A stretch of 64,000 nt of DNA from an uncultured Gammaproteobacteria bacterium (lineage in GTDB: Bacteria > Pseudomonadota > Gammaproteobacteria > GCA-001735895): positions 15,803 to 79,802 of the forward strand of contig CAVYHN010000016.1 in assembly GCA_963768295.1 (NCBI GenBank), given 5' to 3'. Numbering within the stretch: the first letter of the stretch is position 1; each line of letters begins with the position of its first letter. The notes below the pieces were generated by a model. That model did not search any database. It was not told the origin of the DNA and saw nothing but the letters and a program-made list of their open reading frames with translations. The position numbers and the translations under genes were made by a program. Shown piece by piece: positions 3,591-47,455 of the stretch.

Positions 3591-6500
3591 GTGCGGCAAC
3601 TTGAGCCAGGTTGTTTTTGCCAGGTGATGAGTATAGGATTGGGTGTCAAAATAATGACAAATCCAGATCATAGCAACAATAACAATGGATCGGTCGCAAA
3701 AAAGAAAATTGAGGGTGGGGTCATGAGCGTTAAACAGGTACCCAGCGATTCTGGGGATGTGCCATCGGTTTCATGCTGGCCTGAATCAAGGCTGTTTTTC
3801 GTGGTGCTATTCCTGTTTTTTGCATTAACTTTGAGCGGCAAGGCCCGGGCCGAATGCACCGAGGCCGTCGGCCAGTTCGTCGATATTCATGGCGAGGTCG
3901 AAACCCAGGCCGAGGACGGTGGTGACTGGGCTAGCGCCACCATAAAGACCGCGCTGTGCGAAGGCAGTTCGATCAGGGTCGGCGAACAGAGCCGCGCCGC
4001 CATCGCGCTGATCAACGACGCCGTGCTGCGGATCGACGAGAATACCACGATGCGCCTGGTGGATATAGTCGAGGGAGAGGCAGAAGAAGAGCGTTCCCTG
4101 CTCGATATCATCAAGGGCGCGATCCATTCGTTCAGCCGCAAGCCCAGAAAGTTATCGATCAATTCCCCTTATCTGAATGGCTCCATCGAGGGAACCGAGT
4201 TTGTCTTCCGCGTTACCGATGAGCAGTCGGAAATAACCGTATTCGAAGGCACGGTCGTGGCCGCCAACGATCAGGGCAGCGTCGCGGTTTCCGGCGGCGA
4301 AGCAGTCAGCGCCGGCCAGGGGCAGGCACCGCAAGCGCGCACCGTGGTGCGACCGCGCGATGCCGCGCATTGGTCGTTGTACTACCCACCCGTTTTCGCA
4401 ACCGGCGGCGACCAGGCCGCGGATGTTTCAACCGAACTGCGACAGGCGGCGGATGACCTCGCGGCTGGCCGGGTCGACCAGGCACTTCCGAAACTCGACC
4501 AGGCCATTGCTGCAGGCACGAATGCCGGGCTTGCCTATGCATTGCGTGCGGTGATCAACGTGGTACAGAATCAACTCGATGCGGCGCTTGCCGATGCCAG
4601 GCAGGCGGTGGCGTCGAGTCCCGACAGTGCCGCCGCCCTTGTTGCCCTGTCGTACGCGCTACAGGCCGGCTTCCAGATTAACGAGGCCCGCGACACGCTG
4701 CTGCAGGCCGTGGCGAAGCAACCCGAAGATGCGCTTGCGTGGGCGCGACTGGCGGAATTGCAGCTCATGCTCGGGGACAAACAGCAGGCGTCTGAAGCCG
4801 CGCAACGGGCAGTCACGCTGGCGCCGGACCTCGGCAGAACGCAAATTACGCTCGGTTTTACGGCGTTGGCCGAGTTCCGTGCGGAGGATGCGCGAGCTGC
4901 ATTCGAAAAAGCGATCGTGCTCGATTCGGCCGATCCCTTGCCGCATCTCGGCCTCGGTCTCGCCAAAATCAGTGCCGGCGAACTCGAGCAGGGGCGCGCG
5001 GATATCGAGGTCGCGGTCGGACTCGGATCCAACGATGCCCTGTTGCGCGCCTACCTCGGCAAGGCCTACTTCGAAGAAAAACGTGCGCCGCTGGATAGCC
5101 GGCAGTTCGATATCGCGAAACAGCTGGATCCCAATGATCCGACCGCCTGGTTGTATAGCGCTATCGCCAAGCAGACACAAAACCGCCCGGTCGAGGCCGC
5201 ACAAGACCTGGAGCAATCGATCGCGCTGAATGATAACCGTGCGACCTACCGGGGCCGCTTACTGCTTGACAAGGACCGGGCCGCACGGGGATCTTCGCTG
5301 GCACGTGTCTTTAAGGATCTGGGCTTTAATCAAACAGGTATAGCTGAATCGACCAAGTCGCTCGGCGCGGATCCCGCCAATGCTTCGGCACATCGCTTCC
5401 TGTCCGACTCCTATCGTGAAACTTCACACCGTACCGAAATTTCACGAGTCAGCGAATTGCTACAGGCCCAGATGCTGCAGGATCTGAATATCAATCCCGT
5501 TCAACCCAGTATTAGCGCTACAAACTTGAATATCGTGACGGCCGGGGGGCCTTCTGCGGCGGGGTTCAATGAATTTACCCCGTTGTTCGAGCAAAATCGG
5601 ACTCAGCTTAACGCCAGCCTAATGGCTGGAAATAACGAGACGAGAGGCGGAGAGGCGGTTATATCGACGGTGTATGATCGCTTTTCAATCAGTGGCGGCG
5701 CTTTCGACTTCGAAACTGACGGTTTCCGACCCAACAACGATACCTCTCACCAAATATCGGGGCTCTTTGCTCAATGGGCCGTATCACCGACGGTAAATCT
5801 CCAGGCTGAAGTCGGCCGGCGAGAGACCGAGTATGGCGATATCGCCATGCACTTTGATCCGGATGATTTCGATTCGACCTCCAGACGCACTCTGGATGTC
5901 GACACTGAGCGGGTAGGGATGCGTATCGCACCGAATAATAATTCCACAATATTACTGTCAGCCATCCGCGCAGATCGCGATGGCTTTGCCCACCAGGAGG
6001 AAGAGCTGGAGCTGTTTCCCGGATTCAGTCTTGATATCGTTTTTGACGGGTTGCTGGATGAGGAAGTTACCCAATACGACGTGGCGTATATCTACCATCA
6101 GTCAGGTTTCAATTTCACGACGGGCGTCGCCTATACCGAGAGTGATCGTCTTGATACATTTACCTTTTCTGATGTGCCAGTCGCGTTTTTTGATGATCTG
6201 GAAACTGAACAGATTGATCTTGTAGACGCGCGCGTTTACGTCTACGGCAACATCACATTATTACCGGGCGTAGTTGGTACGGTTGGTCTCAGCTACCAGG
6301 ACTACGATCAGGATCAGGTGTATAACTATACAGACCAGACAGGTTTTCTTCCGCCGTCTTCTGCTGAATCTGACCTGGACTTTGACGAGGTTAACCCTAA
6401 GCTCGGGATTCGCGCTGAAGTCATGGATAACCTGGAGCTGCGGGCGTCTTATTTCGAGGTCGTCAAGCCGGCCTTGTCGAGTAACCGCACGCTGGAGCCG

Positions 6501-37291: not shown

Positions 37292-38372
37292 CCATGGAAC
37301 GAACCGGCATCCACGTGCAATCGTCGACCTCGCAGCTCTAAAGCACAATTACCGGTATTTAAAAAGCGCAGCAGGCGGCAATCGTTTGATTGCCGTGGTC
37401 AAGGCCGACGCCTATGGCCATGGCGCGGTGGCAGTCGCGCGTGCGCTCGAAGCTGCGGATGCTTTCGCGGTGGCCGCGGTCGGCGAAGCGAGCGCGCTGC
37501 GGGAAGCGGGCATCAAGCAGAAAATTCTGGTGCTGGGCGGTTTTACGACCGCGGTCGAATTGCAGACCTGTATCGGCCTCGGCATCGATCCGGTATTGCA
37601 CCACCAGTTTCATCTCGATCGCCTGCGGGACGGCGGCGATCTGGGCGACCTCGATGTCTGGTTGAAAGTCGATTCGGGAATGGGCCGCCTGGGGTTTTCC
37701 CTCGACAGAGCCCGCGCAGCGATCGATGCGCTGCATGACCTTCATACGCTGGGCAACATTCGCCTGATGACACACCTGGCCAACGCCGACGATGCCGAAA
37801 GCTCCTACACCGAGCTACAGATAGAAAACATCAATTCGCTCGATCTGGATGCCTATGAATGGGGCATCGCCAACTCAGCGGGTGTTCTCGGCTGGCCGCA
37901 GGCACATCGCCTGTGGGCGCGTGCCGGGATTGCGCTCTACGGCGCGGATCCGATGTCCGATCGCGCGACCGCCGAGCGCGAGCTGCGACCGGTGATGACG
38001 ATGAAATCGGTGGTGCTTGCGATCAATCCGCATGCGCAGGGCGACCTGATCGGTTATGCAAATACCTACACCTGCCCCGAAAATATGACTATCGCCGTGA
38101 TTGCAGCCGGTTACGCGGATGGCTATCCGCGCCATAAGGTCGATACCGCGCAGGTTGAAATCCATGGTCAGCTCTGCGCTGTGGTCGGCAGGGTGTCGAT
38201 GGATATGATAACGGTCGACGTAAGCAAGCTGCCGCGAGTCAGTGTCGGCGATGAAGTCACGCTGTTCGGCAGCGCACCGCATGTCAACGATCTGGCGGAT
38301 TGCTCGCAAACCATCGCCTACGAAGTCCTGTGCAACGTCGGCGCCCACGCCAAACGCGAATACCTCGACTAG
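37284..38372 (+). CDS. alr: alanine racemase
   Basis: PLP-binding VVKADAYGHG. TTG start overlaps the dnaB stop. C-terminal domain ...VGRVSMDMITVD. Confidence 0.85.
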   Translation: MNSHGTNRHPRAIVDLAALKHNYRYLKSAAGGNRLIAVVKADAYGHGAVAVARALEAADAFAVAAVGEASALREAGIKQKILVLGGFTTAVELQTCIGLGIDPVLHHQFHLDRLRDGGDLGDLDVWLKVDSGMGRLGFSLDRARAAIDALHDLHTLGNIRLMTHLANADDAESSYTELQIENINSLDLDAYEWGIANSAGVLGWPQAHRLWARAGIALYGADPMSDRATAERELRPVMTMKSVVLAINPHAQGDLIGYANTYTCPENMTIAVIAAGYADGYPRHKVDTAQVEIHGQLCAVVGRVSMDMITVDVSKLPRVSVGDEVTLFGSAPHVNDLADCSQTIAYEVLCNVGAHAKREYLD

Positions 38373-38429
38373 TTACGCGCAGTTCCGGGGCCAGCCAGCC
38401 CGCGGGTGAAATAACCTTAACCTACAGCA

Positions 38430-38650
38430 ATACACTGTCATCCCCCAGCGAGCAATATTGTAATCCCGAGGCGAGTAATATTGTCCACCCACCGCGAGTA
38501 ATACCGTCATCCCCAGGCGAGTAATACCGTCATCCCCAGGCGAGTAATACTGTCATACCGCGGCTCGACCGCGGTATCCAGCCCGGTTTGAATGCCCGCT
38601 GAATTCCTGGATCCCGCGATCAAGTCGCGGGATGACAAGTTGTTGAAAAG
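38430..38650. repeat. REP/MITE-like palindromic element cluster (copy B)
   Basis: Five or so tandem ~22-nt half-site repeats (GCGAGTAATACCGTCATCCCCAG), then TGTCATACCGCGGCTCGACCGCGGTATCCAG, and an inverted partner CTGGATCCCGCGATCAAGTCGCGGGATGACAAG (BIME-like head-to-head pair). Confidence 0.7.
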
Positions 38651-38700
38651 ACTCTGGTAAAATGGCCCAAATATCCGTAGAATCGCGCCTTCCGAATTAT

Positions 38701-38777
38701 GCGCCTGTAGCTCAGCTGGATAGAGTACTCGGCTACGAACCGAGCGGTCGGGAGTTCGAATCTCTCCAGGCGCGCCA
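38701..38777 (+). tRNA. tRNA-Arg (anticodon ACG)
   Basis: GCGCCTGTAGCTCAGCTGGATAGAGTACTCGGCTACGAACCGAGCGGTCGGGAGTTCGAATCTCTCCAGGCGCGCCA; anticodon loop CTACGAA; canonical cloverleaf with CCA. Confidence 0.9.
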
Positions 38778-39159
38778 TCCATAAAAAGAGCCCCCGCAAG
38801 GGGGCTTTTTTTATGGATGGCTTGTGTGGGGTCCAGATGAGAACTCCGAGTTCGACAAAATCGCCCGGAGCGATTTTGGACGCGCGTCAGCGCGGCCCCG
38901 GAGGGCGGCGCAGCCGACCACAGGGGTGCGGCACAAGGATGTGCCGCACAATCTCTCCAGGCGCGCCATCCATAAAAAGAGCCCCCGCAAGGGGGCTTTT
39001 TTTATGGATGGCTTGTGTGGGGTCCAGATGAGAACTCCGAGTTCGACAAAATCGCCCGGAGCGATTTTGGACGCGCGTCAGCGCGGCCCCGGAGGGCGGC
39101 GCAGCCGACCACAGGGGTGCGGCACAAGGATGTGCCGCACAATCTCTCCAGGCGCGCCA
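38778..39159 (+). repeat. two perfect tandem copies of a 191-bp unit, each ending in the 19-nt tRNA-Arg 3' end (att-like)
   Basis: Unit 1 = 38778-38968; unit 2 = 38969-39159, apparently identical (I found no differences by eye). Each unit holds a terminator hairpin (AAAAAGAGCCCCCGCAAGGGGGCTTTTTTT), the palindrome GTGCGGCACAAGGATGTGCCGCAC, and a terminal AATCTCTCCAGGCGCGCCA identical to the tRNA 3' end. ORFs 38824..39183 and 39015..39251 are artefacts of this repeat. Confidence 0.8.
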
Positions 39160-39748
39160 ATTTTAGTCGCTGTAAAACAATAGTTTATAAAAGCTTTTTA
39201 ATGTTATTTCTAAGCTATTATTTCTTAAGTGTCTATCGTCTATTAGCTTAATCCCATAACCTCAAGCAAAAGCAGACGCTCAAAAATCTGCGATGAGAGG
39301 CAATAGACGATCCAATTGAGACACCCGGAAAATCGAAAAGCGGTCATTTTTAATCTAACCGGGCAGATATTGACACGGTTGGTCCTCGACCTGGTATTTG
39401 GCTCAACTTTAATTTGTTGAGCAGGAAGTAGCGCAGGCCTGCAATTCCAAAGCCCCTGGCCGCAGATTCTTGTAAGACTGAATTTTTCGTGTTGTGACTA
39501 TTTACAGAACACCCACGTCTATAGTTGAACCTCCCTGCTTAAAACCAAGGTTTTATGCTGGGCCTGGAAATTCGGAACCCGTTGATCTAACTGGACGATA
39601 GATTACATGCGTGGACATTGAATCATGCAGGTTAGCATTGATTTTCAGGATACGGAGGAAGGTACCGAGAAGTCACAGATGACTAAACCCGGTATAAATA
39701 TTCTGATGCGCTCCTTAACTTGCGCAACTGTATAAGAGAAGGCAATAC

Positions 39749-41569
39749 ATGCTGAAAAGAATCCTGCTTCCTACCATTCTCCTGCTGCTGGCATATGGTT
39801 TCTGGGTAAGTTCCGATTTTAAGACCATCGCCGCGGGTATATCCCTGTTTCTGTTCGGCATGCTTTCACTGGAGGAGGGATTTCAGGCCTTTACCGGCGG
39901 CACGCTCGAGCGACTGCTGCGACGCACCACATCTTCCACCGGAAAGAGTTTGCTGTTCGGGGTCTTCAGTACCACGCTGATGCAGTCCAGCTCGCTGGTG
40001 TCGGTTATTACGATCTCCTTTCTCAGTGCCGGTCTGATCACGCTGACTGCCGGTATCGGTATTATCTTTGGGGCCAACCTGGGAACCACCACGGGCGCCT
40101 GGCTAATCGCCGGTTTCGGTCTCAAGGTCAATATCGCCGCCTACGCGATGCCGATGCTGGTATTCGGCGTGATTCTGATATTTCAGTCCTCGAGGTCACT
40201 CAAGGGCATCGGCTACATCCTGGCTGGCCTTGGTTTTCTGTTCCTTGGCATTCACTATATGAAGGAAGGCTTCGAGTCCTACAAGGACACAATCAATCTG
40301 GCCGAGTATGCGGTTGCGGGTTATCCAGGCGTGCTACTGTTCACCACCCTCGGTATCTTTGCCACCGTCGTCATGCAATCGAGCCATGCGACCCTGGTAC
40401 TGACGATTACAGCTCTCGCCGCCGGTCAGATTACCTATGAGAACGCCCTGGCGTTGGCAATTGGAGCCAACGTCGGTACTACCATAACCGCGATTCTGGG
40501 AGCCATGAGCGCCAATGAAGCCGGCAAACGCCTGGCCGCTGCGCACCTTGTCTTCAACATGGTGACCGGCGCGATTGCGATTATTTTTATCTACCAACTG
40601 GTTGCGCTGGTCAATGGAATGTCGGCCCTGGTAGGGATTGCCGACGATGACTACACGCTGAAACTCGCCGTGTTCCACTCGGTGTTCAATGTTATTGGCA
40701 TTGTCGTAATGCTGCCGCTAATCAATCGGCTGGTTGTTGCGCTGGAGAAATATATTCCGGAGAAGCGACCCGAAGTGGACCAGCCCAAATACCTGTCTGA
40801 TTCGTCAGCGGCGTTTCCGGGTACCGCGGTAGAGGCGGTTCGCCTGGAGACCTTGCGAGTTTACGAGGCGGCGCTGCGCATCATCATCGACGGGCTCGGG
40901 ATGAAGGCCGCGGACGTGCTATCTAGCAACAACCTGGAGCAGGTTCTCCAGGCACAAAACCGAATCCATCAATTCGATATCGACGCGATGTACGAGAGAC
41001 ACATCAAGGGCATATACAGCGCTATCGTCGTTTTCATCAGCGACACGACTTTTTCGCGCCGGGAAGAGCAATCAGCTGACCTGCGGTGGCTGCGAGACGC
41101 CAACATTCACCTGGTGGAAGCGGTCAAAGATACCGCTCAATTGCAGGAGAACCTGATTTTCTATACCGGGTCGGAAAACCCGGAAATGCGGGCTGCCTAT
41201 AACAGGATTCGAATGCAGGTAGGATTGATAATCCGCGACCTCGAAGAGATGCGCGCATCCACTGCCGGCGTGATCGATGTATTGTCGCTGGACGCCCTCA
41301 AGCTGTTGGTCGAAGAGGACCAGAATCGCATTAATCAGACCCTGACTGAACTGATCGGCAAGCGCGCCATCAGCCCGGCAATGGGATCATCATTGATTAA
41401 TGACAGCGTATTTGCCCACGACATTTGCATGAATTTGATCAGTGCCGCACAGAACCTGTTTGTTACCGGCGAGCAACACCTGACACAGGCAGCACACGAT
41501 GTCGTACTCGACAAAAGCGATCTTAGCAAAATTGGAACACAGGCCAGTGCGGAAAGCCTGCACAGGTAA
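39749..41569 (+). CDS. Na/Pi cotransporter family protein (NptA/YjbB-like, with C-terminal PhoU-like domain)
   Basis: Duplicated Na_Pi_cotrans motifs (GANLGTTTGAWL; GANVGTTITAIL), ~8 TM, C-terminal cytoplasmic helical domain; 606 aa. Confidence 0.8.
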   Translation: MLKRILLPTILLLLAYGFWVSSDFKTIAAGISLFLFGMLSLEEGFQAFTGGTLERLLRRTTSSTGKSLLFGVFSTTLMQSSSLVSVITISFLSAGLITLTAGIGIIFGANLGTTTGAWLIAGFGLKVNIAAYAMPMLVFGVILIFQSSRSLKGIGYILAGLGFLFLGIHYMKEGFESYKDTINLAEYAVAGYPGVLLFTTLGIFATVVMQSSHATLVLTITALAAGQITYENALALAIGANVGTTITAILGAMSANEAGKRLAAAHLVFNMVTGAIAIIFIYQLVALVNGMSALVGIADDDYTLKLAVFHSVFNVIGIVVMLPLINRLVVALEKYIPEKRPEVDQPKYLSDSSAAFPGTAVEAVRLETLRVYEAALRIIIDGLGMKAADVLSSNNLEQVLQAQNRIHQFDIDAMYERHIKGIYSAIVVFISDTTFSRREEQSADLRWLRDANIHLVEAVKDTAQLQENLIFYTGSENPEMRAAYNRIRMQVGLIIRDLEEMRASTAGVIDVLSLDALKLLVEEDQNRINQTLTELIGKRAISPAMGSSLINDSVFAHDICMNLISAAQNLFVTGEQHLTQAAHDVVLDKSDLSKIGTQASAESLHR

Positions 41570-41587
41570 CCCCGGAATGGAGAAGTT

Positions 41588-41839
41588 TTGATGAAGAGAA
41601 AAAAACTGCTGAAGACCCTGTCCAGGCTGCTCGATATGAAAGGGCGCAAGCAGCGCGAGCACCGAGACGAATTAAAAGTGTTGCTTAGAAAGCTCAAGAA
41701 AAAGAAAGTTGAACTGGAAGAAAAAATGCGACTGGAGCAAGACAAACGCAAGCGTGATCGCCTGGACAAGGAACTCGAAATTATAAATGCGCAACGCATT
41801 AAAGGCTTGAAAACGCTGGGGGAGCTAATGCAGGATTAG
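41588..41839 (+). CDS. small highly charged coiled-coil protein of unknown function
   Basis: 83 aa, ~45% K/R/E/D (KRKKLLKTLSRLLDMKGRKQREHRDELKVLLRKLKKKKVELEEKMRLEQDKRKRDRLDKELE). It starts 18 nt after the transporter stop and is preceded by GGAATGGAGAAG (RBS-like). Confidence 0.4.
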   Translation: MMKRKKLLKTLSRLLDMKGRKQREHRDELKVLLRKLKKKKVELEEKMRLEQDKRKRDRLDKELEIINAQRIKGLKTLGELMQD

Positions 41840-42039
41840 CCGCGGCTGCGCGGGCCGACCCCATGCTTGCGTCGCGCCGTGGGTTCACTTGGGCGGCAGG
41901 CTCTTCTGTTTGCCTGAGGCCCGTTTCTGGCCCCTCTGCGGAGCGCCGGATCGGCACATCCCCGTGTTTCGCGGCACCGGCACATCCCTGTGCATTGCGC
42001 CATCCAAAGAAAGAGCCCTCTTTAGGGGACGTTTTTTCC

Positions 42040-42385
42040 TACTGTCATACCGCGGCTTGACCCGATGCGTCGGACCGGCGATATCCAGCGACATTAAAAA
42101 TATTTTAGCCTGATGAAGGCACTGGATCCCGTGGTCGAGCCCACTACTGTCCGGTTTAGAAATTGTTGAGGCGATAAGAGCCTCGTAGTATCGGGTCTTT
42201 CGCATTTTTTGCATATAGGGACTGTGAAATTTTACTCTCCAAACTTGTCATACCGCGGCTTGACCGCGGTATCCAGAAATCCAATGGAATCAAGCTCTGG
42301 ACCCCGCGGTCAAGCCGCGGGGTGACAATTAATACAATAAACGGATGCTTAACCGGACAGTAGTGGGTCGGGCCGCGGGATGACA
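42040..42385. repeat. REP/MITE-like palindromic element cluster (copy C)
   Basis: TGTCATACCGCGGCTTGACCGCGGTATCCAG with inverted partner CTGGACCCCGCGGTCAAGCCGCGGGGTGACAA, a third half-site GGCCGCGGGATGACAG, and the shared ACTGTGAAATTTTACTCT motif. Confidence 0.7.
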
Positions 42386-42417
42386 GCAATACGATTTTTA
42401 CGCGCTTCAATATGGCC

Positions 42418-42486
42418 CCGCAGGGGTGCGGTACAGGAATGTGCTGCTTCGGCACGCCGCGCGCAATCTCTCCAAGGCGCGCGGCC
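42418..42486 (+). repeat. degenerate third copy of the tRNA-Arg-associated repeat end (att-like)
   Basis: CCGCAGGGGTGCGGTACAGGAATGTGCTGCTTCGGCACGCCGCGCGCAATCTCTCCAAGGCGCGCGGCC, compared with CCACAGGGGTGCGGCACAAGGATGTGCCGCACAATCTCTCCAGGCGCGCCA in the 191-bp units. Confidence 0.55.
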
Positions 42487-42629
42487 TAGTCGATTTTGAG
42501 ATATTGGGCCTGTACTTGAAATACTAGTCTGTTTCCTAAAACTCGGATGCTTTCTGTACCTATAACTCCTTGTTATCATATTGAACTTCCGAAATACTAT
42601 CTTTGGCTGTTATTGTTGGGGGCTCTGGT

Positions 42630-43343
42630 ATGCAAGTTAAATTACGAAACAGAATTTGGTGGTGCGCAATCCTGTCTTTCGCAGCGACCATCGTTGAAGC
42701 GGCCGAAATGCCGAATCGAATCGGCACAATTCTTCGCATCCAGGGTCAGGTCGTGGAACAACCGCAGGGTTTTGCAAGCCGGCCACTGTACCTCGGCGCT
42801 CCGGTTCATGCCCAGAGTAAAATCAAAACTGGACCGGATGCGCGGCTCGAAATCCGTTTCATAGACGGCTCGAAAATGATGTTGGGGGAGTGGGCCCATG
42901 TCAGTCTGAATATCAATATCAAGGATTACCGCCCCAGGCAACAGCAGTCGGCACAGACCGGTGAGTCTGCGCCCGAGGCACAAGAATCTAACTCGATGAC
43001 AGTCAATATCCTGTCCGGCACCTTCAGGTTCGTCACCGGTCTGATTGCCAAGATCAATAATCGGAGTGTGCGTTTCGGAACCCAGGTGGCAACGATCGGC
43101 ATTCGCGGCACTGATTTTTTTGGCGGCCCGTTGGCGGCCGGTATGCCGCCGGGCGAGATACATTATGGTTTCATGATCCTGGACGGCGCCATCGACATAA
43201 ATAATCGACACGGGAGAGTGACTTTGGACAGTCCCCAGGAAGGAACATTTCTGCCCATGAAAGGGCACAAGGCGCCAACCCCGCCAGCAACCTGGAAGCA
43301 ACCGGCAATCGACGAGGCTTTTGCCTCGATTGCGTTTAACTAG
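42630..43343 (+). CDS. FecR-domain periplasmic protein (standalone)
   Basis: Signal peptide MQVKLRNRIWWCAILSFAATIVEAA. FecR-like β-rich domain (RIGTILRIQGQVVEQ...ATIGIRGTDFFGG), similar to the FecR segment of the giant protein and to the 55542 paralogue. Confidence 0.6.
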   Translation: MQVKLRNRIWWCAILSFAATIVEAAEMPNRIGTILRIQGQVVEQPQGFASRPLYLGAPVHAQSKIKTGPDARLEIRFIDGSKMMLGEWAHVSLNINIKDYRPRQQQSAQTGESAPEAQESNSMTVNILSGTFRFVTGLIAKINNRSVRFGTQVATIGIRGTDFFGGPLAAGMPPGEIHYGFMILDGAIDINNRHGRVTLDSPQEGTFLPMKGHKAPTPPATWKQPAIDEAFASIAFN

Positions 43344-43424
43344 TCGGCAGCCCGTGAATGCGATCGAGGCGCCTTCCGTCTATGACCGCCGGGAAAATGC
43401 GCGTGTATCCCGAGACCCTGGTTA

Positions 43425-44252
43425 TTACTGTTTCAATAGTGCCTCGGTTAAGGCTGACCGGGGATCGGCGAGTCCGTCGATAACATTAAAGTGGTGTTGC
43501 CCTGGCGTCAGATGAACCGAGGTCTTTACTCCGAACCCGGTCCAGATATTGGCCAGTAATTCTGATTGGCGCACAAATTCCGGGCGCTCGTCCGCGCCGA
43601 CCCAGCAAACAAGTTCGACGTTTTTGATGGGCTGGTTAAGGGCGGCACTCTCAGCCTCGGCTTCGGCTGCGTCCATGCGAAAATCGTCGTTCATTTGCGT
43701 CTTCAGCAGTGGGCGCAAATCGTGCAGACCCGAGATCGAAACGACGCGATCGATGCGCGCCCTGACATCTGCCGCCAGCGGGCTGTCCCGGCAAATCATG
43801 CGGGTTACCAGGTGACCGCCGGCGGAATGTCCTGTCAGCCTGACCGGGCCGCTGATCATCGCCGCCGCTTTGCTGATAGCCGCCCCGGTCTGACGCGTGA
43901 TTTCGCTGATTGAAACTGTCGGCGCCAGGTCATAGGAGGGCAGCGCCACCGCCCAGCCTCGTTGCACCGCGCCGTTTGCCAGATGCGACCAGACGGATTT
44001 GTCGAACGCCCGCCAATAGCCGCCATGGATAAAGACCACCAACCCGCGGGGCTGATCTTGCGGGCGAAACAGATCGAGTGTTTGGCGCGCGCTGTCGCCG
44101 TAAGCGATATCGATTTCGGCCAGACGTTTTGCAGCCATGGCTTGACGAAACTCGAGCGCTGCCCGGGCCCACCTGGACGAAAAATCATCCGCGCCTTCGA
44201 TATAGGCGCCGTTGGCGTAGGCGTCGTTCCAGTCCTCGATTTTTACGCTCAT
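43425..44252 (-). CDS. α/β-hydrolase, AFMID-type kynurenine formamidase candidate
   Basis: HGGYW oxyanion-hole motif and GHSAGGHL nucleophile elbow, as in eukaryotic-type arylformamidase. Divergent from kynureninase, 67 nt away. Confidence 0.55.
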   Translation of the reverse strand: MSVKIEDWNDAYANGAYIEGADDFSSRWARAALEFRQAMAAKRLAEIDIAYGDSARQTLDLFRPQDQPRGLVVFIHGGYWRAFDKSVWSHLANGAVQRGWAVALPSYDLAPTVSISEITRQTGAAISKAAAMISGPVRLTGHSAGGHLVTRMICRDSPLAADVRARIDRVVSISGLHDLRPLLKTQMNDDFRMDAAEAEAESAALNQPIKNVELVCWVGADERPEFVRQSELLANIWTGFGVKTSVHLTPGQHHFNVIDGLADPRSALTEALLKQ

Positions 44253-45513: not shown

Positions 45514-45873
45514 TCTCACGAGTAGCGAATTCTTCAGAACTCTAGACAACAGTGACTTTCGAAGCGTGAAACTCTTTTGGAATGTGAGCATTGGATCGCC
45601 ATAAGTTTATAATAATCAATAATTAATAAGATTAATTTAATGTGTTTTCTCAAATAATATAATTGTATTTTTATTTTTCAATGACGCGTTGATGTCTCCA
45701 TGCAGTATTTCATAAATAAATCCTGGAAAATGATTCGATACCTTCCTGTTCGATTCTCTGGTTGATTTTTATTGCACTACATAATGTATACATTAAGGTG
45801 GGGATAGTGCGAATAAGTCAGTTTTCAGTAGATTTAAGTGACAACTAAGCGAGATCAAATGGCAGGTCAACAG

Positions 45874-47291: not shown

Positions 47292-47455
47292 AGGGACCTC
47301 GGCTGCCCTTCGCTGATCCGATAACGCAAAAATCCGGACGCTGGGCTAACCAGGAGCGGCCTCGATTTTACTGATCCGGTAAGCCTCTTAACAGTCTGAT
47401 TCTGGACACCCGTTAGCGTCAACGATTCGACGCTATACAGCGAAATTTCTCTGCT

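Follow-up and report, generated by a model that had tools for sequence, protein, structure and literature searches.

A putative native array of RtT-like tRNA-tail units behind tRNA-Arg(ACG), with an island remnant and a phosphate-transporter operon, in an uncultured gammaproteobacterium

Genomic islands that sit at tRNA genes and encode P4-like tyrosine integrases are bounded by attachment (att) sites, attL and attR, each a copy of the 3' segment of the tRNA; cis-mobilizable, CIME-type elements are what remains of such islands after decay or accretion. Work from the late 1970s to 1991 brought to light the 178-bp repeats of Escherichia coli tyrT and the RtT RNA. According to Bosl & Kersten 1991, as cited in PMC3318445 (the paper is also cited in PMC4986893), RtT is released from the tyrT primary transcript. 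Northern blots of Actinobacillus are reported to show RNAs of the RtT family that lie beside tRNA genes for Asn and Lys (PMC4986893). Here, we describe a locus that bears on both systems, in a stretch of 64,000 nucleotides from an uncultured Gammaproteobacteria bacterium (GenBank assembly GCA_963768295.1, contig CAVYHN010000016.1, positions 15,803 to 79,802; hereafter the window), where a tRNA-Arg(ACG) gene is followed by perfect tandem 191-bp repeats and a variable islet. An earlier note on this DNA had read the repeats as the product of repeated site-specific integration at the tRNA 3' end. The explanation that we favor, with moderate confidence, is that they are not att scars: an old layer, tRNA-Arg(ACG) followed by a native array of RtT-like tail units, each made of a terminator and a hairpin-rich element, would have received an island remnant and a phosphate-transporter operon.

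The tail array behind tRNA-Arg(ACG)

The array lies at the end of an rpsF...dnaB-alr-tRNA-Arg gene order (alr, alanine racemase) and comprises the following features, with coordinates in the window.

38701-38777, + strand: intact tRNA-Arg(ACG), whose last 19 nt (38759-38777) are core copy 1 (ARAGORN; Rfam tRNA model, 64 bits; alr-tRNA-Arg synteny).
38775-38821, + strand: intrinsic, bidirectional-looking terminator hairpin of the tRNA, GCCATCCATAAAAAGAGCCCCC/GGGGGCTTTTTTTATGGATGGC (compensatory changes in relatives, alignment columns 1-41).
38822-38968, + strand: putative RtT-like unit 1, closed by core copy 2 (38950-38968) (covariance model R1, 124.5 bits; alignments; covariation).
39013-39159, + strand: putative RtT-like unit 2, 100% identical to unit 1, closed by core copy 3 (39141-39159) (Tandem Repeats Finder; model R1).

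Tandem Repeats Finder resolved 38759-39159 into 2.1 copies of a 191-bp period with 100% matches and ARAGORN recovered the tRNA gene, in agreement with the tRNA-Arg and two perfect repeats of the earlier note. The tRNA-end 19-mer, AATCTCTCCAGGCGCGCCA, occurs exactly three times in the 64 kb (chance expectation, 0.06), and each of the first two cores is followed by the terminator hairpin, whose second, identical copy spans 38966-39012. The 172-bp spacer is made of this terminator and of a hairpin-rich element that runs up to the 19-mer and includes GAGTTCGA, the 5' half of the T-arm. Unit 1 contains a decayed 5' strand of the acceptor/T-stem, GAUGAGAA, GAGTTCGA, and hairpins hp1 (38856-38878), hp2, hp3 (split, with an extra hairpin), and hp4, a palindrome at 38926-38949. 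Tail, terminator hairpin, and palindrome are thus all present as the earlier note had described each unit, with the palindrome GGGGTGCGGCACAAGGATGTGCCGCAC confined to the two units. Protein-coding function of the units (open reading frames [ORFs] 38813-39031 and 38824-39183) was discarded, given a period of 191 bp that is not a multiple of 3 and indels of 21-52 nt among relatives.

Relatives were collected by scanning species-representative genomes with alanine racemase and metagenomes with a unit-derived pattern, the latter yielding 8 further contigs; the fetched loci carry handles of the form L001. By alr, the closest named genome is that of the Olavius algarvensis Gamma 3 symbiont (80% amino acid identity), followed by uncultured Gammaproteobacteria (61-75%), and alr-tRNA-Arg synteny is kept in L001-L012. 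The terminator and the first ~100 nt of the 172-bp spacer are 80-91% identical by blastn in L005, L007, L008, L009, and L012 (alr 62-69% identical at the amino acid level; L012 partial), as are the terminator and unit in L081-L088. This identity of 80-91% contrasts with ~70-78% nucleotide identity for alr in the same pairs, and the unit is conserved 3' of tRNA-Arg in relatives whose racemase is 64-72% identical. The whole unit (terminator, spacer, four hairpins, and 19-mer) stands 3' of tRNA-Arg in L083, L085, L007, and L008. In five metagenome contigs (L081, L082, L084, L086, and L088), it stands 3' of attR, i.e., of ~45 nt of tRNA 3' end preceded by AT-rich island DNA, which identifies the unit as chromosomal flank rather than island DNA. 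Across the window and 12 further loci, a scan with model R1, a covariance model built from the units of this lineage alone, gave matches only at tRNA-Arg loci, and the unit pattern was absent from the viral contigs scanned. Judged by these comparisons, the 191-bp unit is an old, native, lineage-conserved feature.

Unit number is variable. Relatives carry one to three tandem copies, often diverged; L087 has two diverged units, and L081, L082, L084, and L088 have a second unit that is partial or cut by the contig end (L084 stops at the opening terminator of its second unit). The number of units therefore changes within the lineage, and the perfect pair in the window would reflect a very recent duplication of one unit, likely by slippage or unequal exchange at the direct repeats that flank it, whether these are the 19-nt cores by themselves or cores together with the terminator. 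L083 displays the order tRNA, terminator, one unit, core, a second-type terminator (terminator'), REP (repetitive extragenic palindromic) pair, and partial unit, with no islet; it corresponds to the window without the duplicated unit and without the segment that carries the Na/Pi cotransporter NptA. This arrangement assigns the degenerate repeat at 42418-42486 of the window to the ancestral array.

Alignment of 13 units gave a 170-nt consensus with the order extended terminator hairpin, GGUACCUGCGGGAUCAGAUGAGAACUCCAGGUUCGA, hairpin 1 CAAAAUCGCCCGGAGCGAUUUUG, hairpin 2 CGCGC-GUCA-GCGCG, GCCCCGAAGGGG, hairpin 4, and C plus the 19-mer. After the terminator, the consensus element of the lineage is ~128-147 nt long. 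It contains GAUGAGAA, a duplicate of the T-arm 5' half (AGGUUCGA), and four hairpins, and its 3' terminus reproduces the final 19 nt of the tRNA exactly, from T-loop to CCA. In this consensus, its 5' strand, CCUG-C-GGGA-UCA-GAU, is predicted to pair with the tRNA-derived 3' end in a minihelix-like closing stem, and GAGTTCGA...AATCTCTCC corresponds to the tRNA T-arm, interrupted in the T-loop by the hairpin block. RNAalifold likewise placed a closing helix, CCUG-GGGA-GAU/AUC-UCUC-CAGG (the latter from the 19-mer), around five hairpins, with compensatory double changes in 15 of 51 pairs. When the alignment was trimmed, 98% of cells were paired (28-49% in slid controls), and six pairs were changed on both sides, as opposed to 0.9 in shuffles (0/500). 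Single changes on the tRNA strand yield mostly G-U rather than A-C pairs, a bias that favors the tRNA strand. The consensus unit folds with -60.8 kcal/mol (z=-3.15).

Most likely, the units originated as decayed tandem tRNA copies. The architecture suggests an origin model in which a tandem pseudo-tRNA was stripped of the D and anticodon arms and acquired an insert in the T-loop, and two loci, L004 and L097, look intermediate. The units are probably made as RNA through read-through from the tRNA promoter, and this RNA would probably be trimmed by tRNA-processing enzymes that recognize the acceptor/T-stem and CCA.

At positions 7207-7709 of L004, tRNA-Arg sequence from the 5' end as far as the T-loop continues into the unit hairpin block and a truncated 3' end. 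This fusion occurs in at least three repeats with a period of 208 and has its own promoter; ARAGORN found no tRNA on that contig. A bacterial T-loop intron, which L004 might suggest, was rejected: most units have no anticodon arm, and the L004 copies have no acceptor 3' end. Insertion of an IS200/IS605-type element or of a miniature inverted-repeat transposable element (3' of TTCGA, with subterminal hairpins) was likewise rejected, as the hairpins abut the ends, the position is conserved, and there are no extra copies in the window or in the 12 loci scanned with R1.

Resemblance to RtT RNA and competing accounts of the units

The E. coli K-12 tyrT-tyrV locus carries a 178-bp unit in 3.1 copies with 95% matches; the array (405-963) overlaps the last 19 nt of tyrV (945-963), is annotated with rttR (RtT RNA) and tpr, and holds four matches to the Rfam RtT family, RF00391. 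Both loci therefore present tandem units of ~180-190 bp on the same strand and immediately 3' of a tRNA gene (178 bp x 3.1 in E. coli; 191 bp x 2.1 in the window), and in both each unit ends with the exact last 19 nt of the cognate tRNA, CCA included. They further share the succession of a T-arm 5' half (GGUUCGA), a hairpin insert of ~70 nt, AAUC, and the tRNA 3' end. In the Rfam RtT consensus, the closing helix is followed by GAUGAGAA, AGGUUCGA, a first hairpin, a second hairpin of sequence CGucGC-gucA-GCgaCG, CCCGaAGgg, and a 3' region before the tRNA 3' end. A closing helix of 5' strand and tRNA-derived 3' end is predicted for the consensus of the window lineage as well, and the two consensus sequences present GAUGAGAA, AGGUUCGA, the CG(u)CGC-GUCA-GCG(a)CG hairpin, and CCCGAAGGG in collinear order. 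The P2-type pairing UUCG:CGAA of the Rfam structure did not hold up in this lineage, where CGCA and CUCG variants break it.

Global alignment of the lineage consensus with the RtT consensus confirmed the collinearity (z=7.1; 0/2000 shuffles), also after removal of all tRNA-derived parts (z=4.9; 1/5000). When the 2-kb E. coli locus was searched with R1, filters off, the four RtT copies were the top four full-length matches (E=0.004, 0.008, 0.023, and 0.16), and the tyrT and tyrV genes themselves were not among the top full-length matches. We infer that the units are RtT-like elements, possibly distant homologues of RtT.

The two systems also differ in several respects. The window units follow tRNA-Arg(ACG), their host belongs to an uncultured marine lineage of Gammaproteobacteria, every unit of the window type has its own strong intrinsic terminator in front, which E. 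coli lacks, and hairpins hp1 and hp4 are unlike those of RtT. A tpr-like ORF is not conserved over the indels of the units. The Rfam model misses the window-type units. An RtT construction behind another tRNA, from an uncultured and distant lineage of Gammaproteobacteria, conserved above the neighboring housekeeping gene, with hairpin covariation and beyond the reach of the Rfam model, suggests an RtT design of greater age and breadth than the annotated family.

A number of observations weigh against the reading of the locus as a native RtT-like array with inserted cargo. The RF00391 model (gathering threshold, 45 bits) found no match at E<=1 over 37500-43500 or at E<=10 over 38690-39200, nor did it match the canonical units of L087 even at E<=10, and pairwise local alignment of a window unit with a K-12 RtT copy was not significant; the units are thus RtT-like in design rather than RF00391 members by its threshold. 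Homology to RtT rests on weak reciprocal evidence with rough E-values. The comparison comprises just 11-13 units, several of them from close relatives. The closing helix is nearly invariant across units, so covariation gives no test of it, and in the window units its 5' strand is degraded and the minimum-energy fold lacks that helix. Since a strong terminator precedes each unit and no promoter-like site for the units was found, their expression would need read-through. Regarding the younger events, the islands of relatives share ~45 nt with the tRNA (anticodon loop to CCA), not 19, so that the 19-nt core may not be a competent att site, and the right junction of the islet has no 5' part of the core. 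Rfam scans of the region returned only the tRNA and spurious hairpin matches below threshold (mir-9457, STnc50, and WsnRNA46 at 42232-42339).

Part of these observations would also be expected if the units were nonfunctional debris, namely, decayed tandem pseudo-tRNA-Arg copies with REP-like palindromes, kept similar by gene conversion or recent spread, with a convergent likeness to RtT that stems from the tandem tRNA genes in both systems. The degraded closing helix of the window copies, the terminator before each unit, and the missing Rfam match fit this account, as do the tRNA pieces recognizable in the 5' part, the T-arm split between GAGTTCGA and AATCTCTCC, the full tRNA 5' part fused to the insert in L004, and the palindromic elements that do insert in units. 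Debris would nonetheless not be expected to outstrip alr in conservation (80-91% versus ~70-78% nucleotide identity), to maintain hairpin pairing through double changes, or to display an RtT-collinear motif order that extends past the tRNA-derived parts. We therefore regard this account as unlikely.

Still less probable is that the perfect second copy is an assembly artefact in a genome with a single unit. Identity of 100% over 191 bp is what such an error would produce, and many contigs of relatives break at tRNA-Arg, where assemblers evidently struggle. Assemblers, however, usually collapse identical tandem copies and rarely invent them, two-unit arrays are present in independent assemblies (L087 and L082; L084 ends at the terminator of a second unit), and the contig of the window is 299 kb long.

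Island remnant and relocated operon in the variable islet

The remaining and least tenable account of the units is that of the earlier note, i.e., that they are attL/attR duplications left by repeated integration of a mini-island or CIME-like element mobilized in trans, with 39160-42417 as one decayed island closed by a third repeat. What follows the third core consists of three segments.

39160-39235, + strand: candidate integrase-proximal (attL) arm remnant, ~75 nt, of the island family found at this tRNA in relatives (arm homology).
39236-39611, unstranded: orphan AT-rich noncoding DNA, GC ~0.44, with no ORF of >=50 amino acids and no similarity to any fetched locus.
39612-41859, + strand: putatively relocated operon, with a native 5' region (39612-39748), the Na/Pi cotransporter NptA (39749-41569), and an 82-amino-acid ORF (41591-41839) (Pfam PF02690; relatives).

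Sequence comparisons support tRNA-Arg as an integration hotspot. Tyrosine integrases lie directly 3' of tRNA-Arg in L002 (PF00589), L097 (alr 89%), and L103; attR copies of the tRNA 3' half are present in L081, L082, L084, L086, L088, and L008. Between CCA and the integrase 3' end, relatives have an arm of ~68 nt, TCTTxAAxCCCTTG...CAAGGGTTTTTTAATGTTACTCCTAAGCTGTTATTTTCC. Positions 39195-39223 of the window match the L097 arm at 26 of 29 nt and at equal offset from CCA (score 43; shuffle mean 16 and maximum 28; 0/2000). L083 has a similar arm remnant after the core of its last partial unit, and the match of the window's arm to it is weaker. As the earlier note had stated, no integrase remains: tblastn of the 64-kb window with the L002, L097, and L103 integrases yielded no match at E<=0.1, and an integrase pseudogene in the AT-rich 39160-39748 was sought and not found. 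An arm remnant right after the third 19-mer with no integrase relic indicates that an island of this family was once joined there and has since decayed.

At L097 3324-3600, complete tRNA-Arg plus the 68-nt arm is tandemly duplicated with a period of 145, immediately before the tyrosine integrase gene. The contigs of L005, L006, L007, L010, L099, L100, L102, and L104 stop at tRNA-Arg or a short way past it, up to ~440 nt for L005 and up to ~225 nt for the others, a clustering that points to a repeat- or variation-driven assembly break at this hotspot.

The locus shares several traits with islands that use P4-like integrases. Variable cargo lies beside the tRNA, and the arm remnant directly follows a copy of the tRNA end; in relatives, the integrase directly follows the tRNA, whose 3' end recurs as a fragment at the far end. 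The cargo consists mostly of transporters (NptA in the window; SulP, MFS, and NfeD/SPFH in relatives). In contrast to such islands, the window has neither an integrase nor a recognizable right arm, its left repeat belongs to an RtT-like unit, at its end, instead of to the tRNA, with an identity block of 19 nt versus ~45 nt, and its right repeat is just GCGCCA behind an inserted palindromic element. To the left of the insertion lies the perfect 19-mer at 39141-39159; the candidate repeats on the right are GCGCCA at 41997-42002, behind the 68-nt element described below, and the degenerate ancestral core at 42465-42484. A CIME or an element mobilized by an integrase in trans is recognized by two functional att sites; here, the right att is not intact. 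The earlier suggestion of a decayed island or integrase-in-trans element hence holds for the arm remnant of an island but not for an islet made of a single element. This island-remnant part of the locus is ordinary.

The islet varies among relatives, as the comparison proposed by the earlier note has now revealed: it is absent from L083, differs in L090, and gives way to other cargo in L001, L008, and L085. Its composition is uneven too. GC is 0.43-0.45 across ~39100-39850, with flanks of 0.55-0.62, so that the first ~590 bp fit the AT-rich islet of ~3.3 kb described earlier, but the NptA region, with GC of 0.52-0.58, does not. Pfam confirmed the predicted Na/Pi cotransporter, and the REP cluster noted in the segment is present. 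NptA is 97% identical at the protein level in L090 (GCA_947259305.1), and the DNA at 39750-41859 is 95% identical; this similarity starts exactly at the NptA start codon and stops at 41859. In L090, NptA is preceded by AT-rich DNA of no relation to that of the window and by a core remnant, GCAC-AATCTCTCCAGGCGCGC; the 120 nt directly upstream of the window's NptA are 75% identical to L092. The NptA and 82-amino-acid pair is kept in L090-L095. In more distant relatives, with NptA identity of 83-90%, neither a tRNA nor a core accompanies the gene pair: L092, L093, and L095 have it in a LysR/RimK/CorC/sigma-factor context (the mix varies by locus) and L091 in another. Between the hydrolase-kynU-icd backbone and the tRNA array, the cargo of other relatives differs. 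With its NptA-part breakpoints, relocated gene pair, and varied cargo in relatives, the islet is, on this comparative evidence, a mosaic rather than a single element and lies in a recombination hotspot. An exact-protein look-up of the window's NptA retrieved nothing on record. The 82-amino-acid ORF is Lys/Arg/Glu-rich, always lies 3' of the Na/Pi cotransporter in L090-L095, and is 75-91% identical where tblastn detected it; it gave no match in Pfam and probably encodes a genuine but uncharacterized partner protein.

The integration account of the units draws on the 19-nt direct repeats of the tRNA end, on the island arm behind the third core and behind the core of the partial unit in L083, on the integrases at tRNA-Arg in relatives, and on the tandem tRNA plus arm beside the integrase of L097. 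It is highly improbable and largely refuted for the units, which occur singly or in tandem in distant relatives without the islet and 3' of attR and are thus not att duplications; which are confined to tRNA-Arg loci in the window and the 12 loci scanned and absent from the viral contigs; and which have RtT architecture, while the islands of relatives duplicate ~45 nt rather than 19, the repeat at 42418-42486 is ancestral, and the islet is a mosaic with NptA breakpoints at the start codon and at 41859. In genomic-island annotation, direct repeats of a tRNA end beside tRNA genes should not automatically be taken as att scars.

Under the native-array reading, a younger layer would have formed when a tyrosine-integrase island joined the last 19-mer, either as a secondary att site or via core-to-core recombination. 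The island would then have decayed, leaving the ~75-nt integrase-side arm and ~375 bp of AT-rich DNA, and the operon of NptA and the 82-amino-acid ORF, located elsewhere in most relatives, would have come to occupy the gap. To the right of it, the native array would resume with a split core, terminator', REPs, and the degenerate unit. A more speculative generalization, to which we give little credence, is that RtT-type elements are ancient, widespread, tRNA-minihelix-capped RNAs derived from tandem tRNA copies, whose 19-nt copies double as secondary or decoy integrase sites, so that islands accrete behind the tail array and spare the tRNA. If true, the window and L083, with an island arm joined to a unit core, would be snapshots of island accretion.

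The right-hand array and neighboring features

Downstream of the operon, the window continues with the following features.

41929-41996, + strand: 68-nt double-hairpin miniature palindromic element, 5' of GCG (84.6% identity to L086).
41997-42037, + strand: core 3' end (GCGCCA) and terminator' of the native array, the nearest right junction of the insertion (80% terminator copy; homologous to L083 4264-4323 and L086).
42040-42385, unstranded: REP/REPIN cluster that belongs to the native array (L083 and L086 have it at the same position).
42366-42486, + strand: degenerate partial RtT-like unit with hp3, an hp4-like hairpin, and core-like AATCTCTCCAAGGCGCGCGG at 42465-42484 (R1; orthologous to the L083 partial unit at 4419-4457).
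42603-43343, + strand: FecR-domain gene, window specific (Pfam PF04773).

The degenerate third repeat of the earlier note is a real copy, detected by R1 at 42366-42468 (24.2 bits; E=0.001), with 83% identity over 30 nt and 93% over 15 nt within 42418-42486; it does not close an island, since it is ancestral according to L083. A nearer degenerate junction, at 41997-42037 (GCGCCA and the 80%-identical terminator), was absent from that note. The 68-nt element consists of two GCACATCCCTGTGC-type hairpins. It splits the 19-nt core in L086 and lies in the hp1 loop of L007 (11267-11446) and L085; its occurrence at different sites, always 5' of GCG, makes it look mobile.

REP/REPIN and miniature palindromic elements are thus represented in the region by REP doublets and by this site-varying 68-nt element. 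The 191-bp unit differs from them in that it is not dispersed, R1 matching only this locus in the window and the scanned fetched loci. The REP/REPIN family, GTCATxCCGCGGCTTGACCGCGGxATCC, forms inverted doublets at 38551-38640 and 42043-42385, and the WsnRNA46 match at 42232-42339 (44 bits; threshold, 65) is probably just a REP palindrome. Between alr and the tRNA-Arg promoter, at 38434-38556, lies a 23-bp tandem repeat (ACTGTCATCCCCAGGCGAGTAAT) of REP half-sites in 5.3 copies, and L083 has an analogous 23-bp array in the same place.

None of the fetched related loci has a homolog of the FecR gene, and a sigma factor beside it was not seen among the ORFs examined. In L090, the closest relative, the 82-amino-acid ORF abuts the hydrolase gene; the interval 41860-43449, which holds the 68-nt element, GCGCCA with terminator', the REPs, the partial unit, and FecR, is therefore absent from that genome. 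Gene order downstream of the array is Na/Pi cotransporter, 82-amino-acid ORF, FecR-domain gene, hydrolase, kynureninase, and an isocitrate/isopropylmalate-type dehydrogenase. The spacer from the kynureninase gene to the dehydrogenase gene is sharply AT-rich (45550-45850; GC 0.31), and, opposite 47292-47393 of the window, L090 (9354-11535) has 2.2 kb of extra DNA with a 171-amino-acid ORF and a HisKA histidine kinase.

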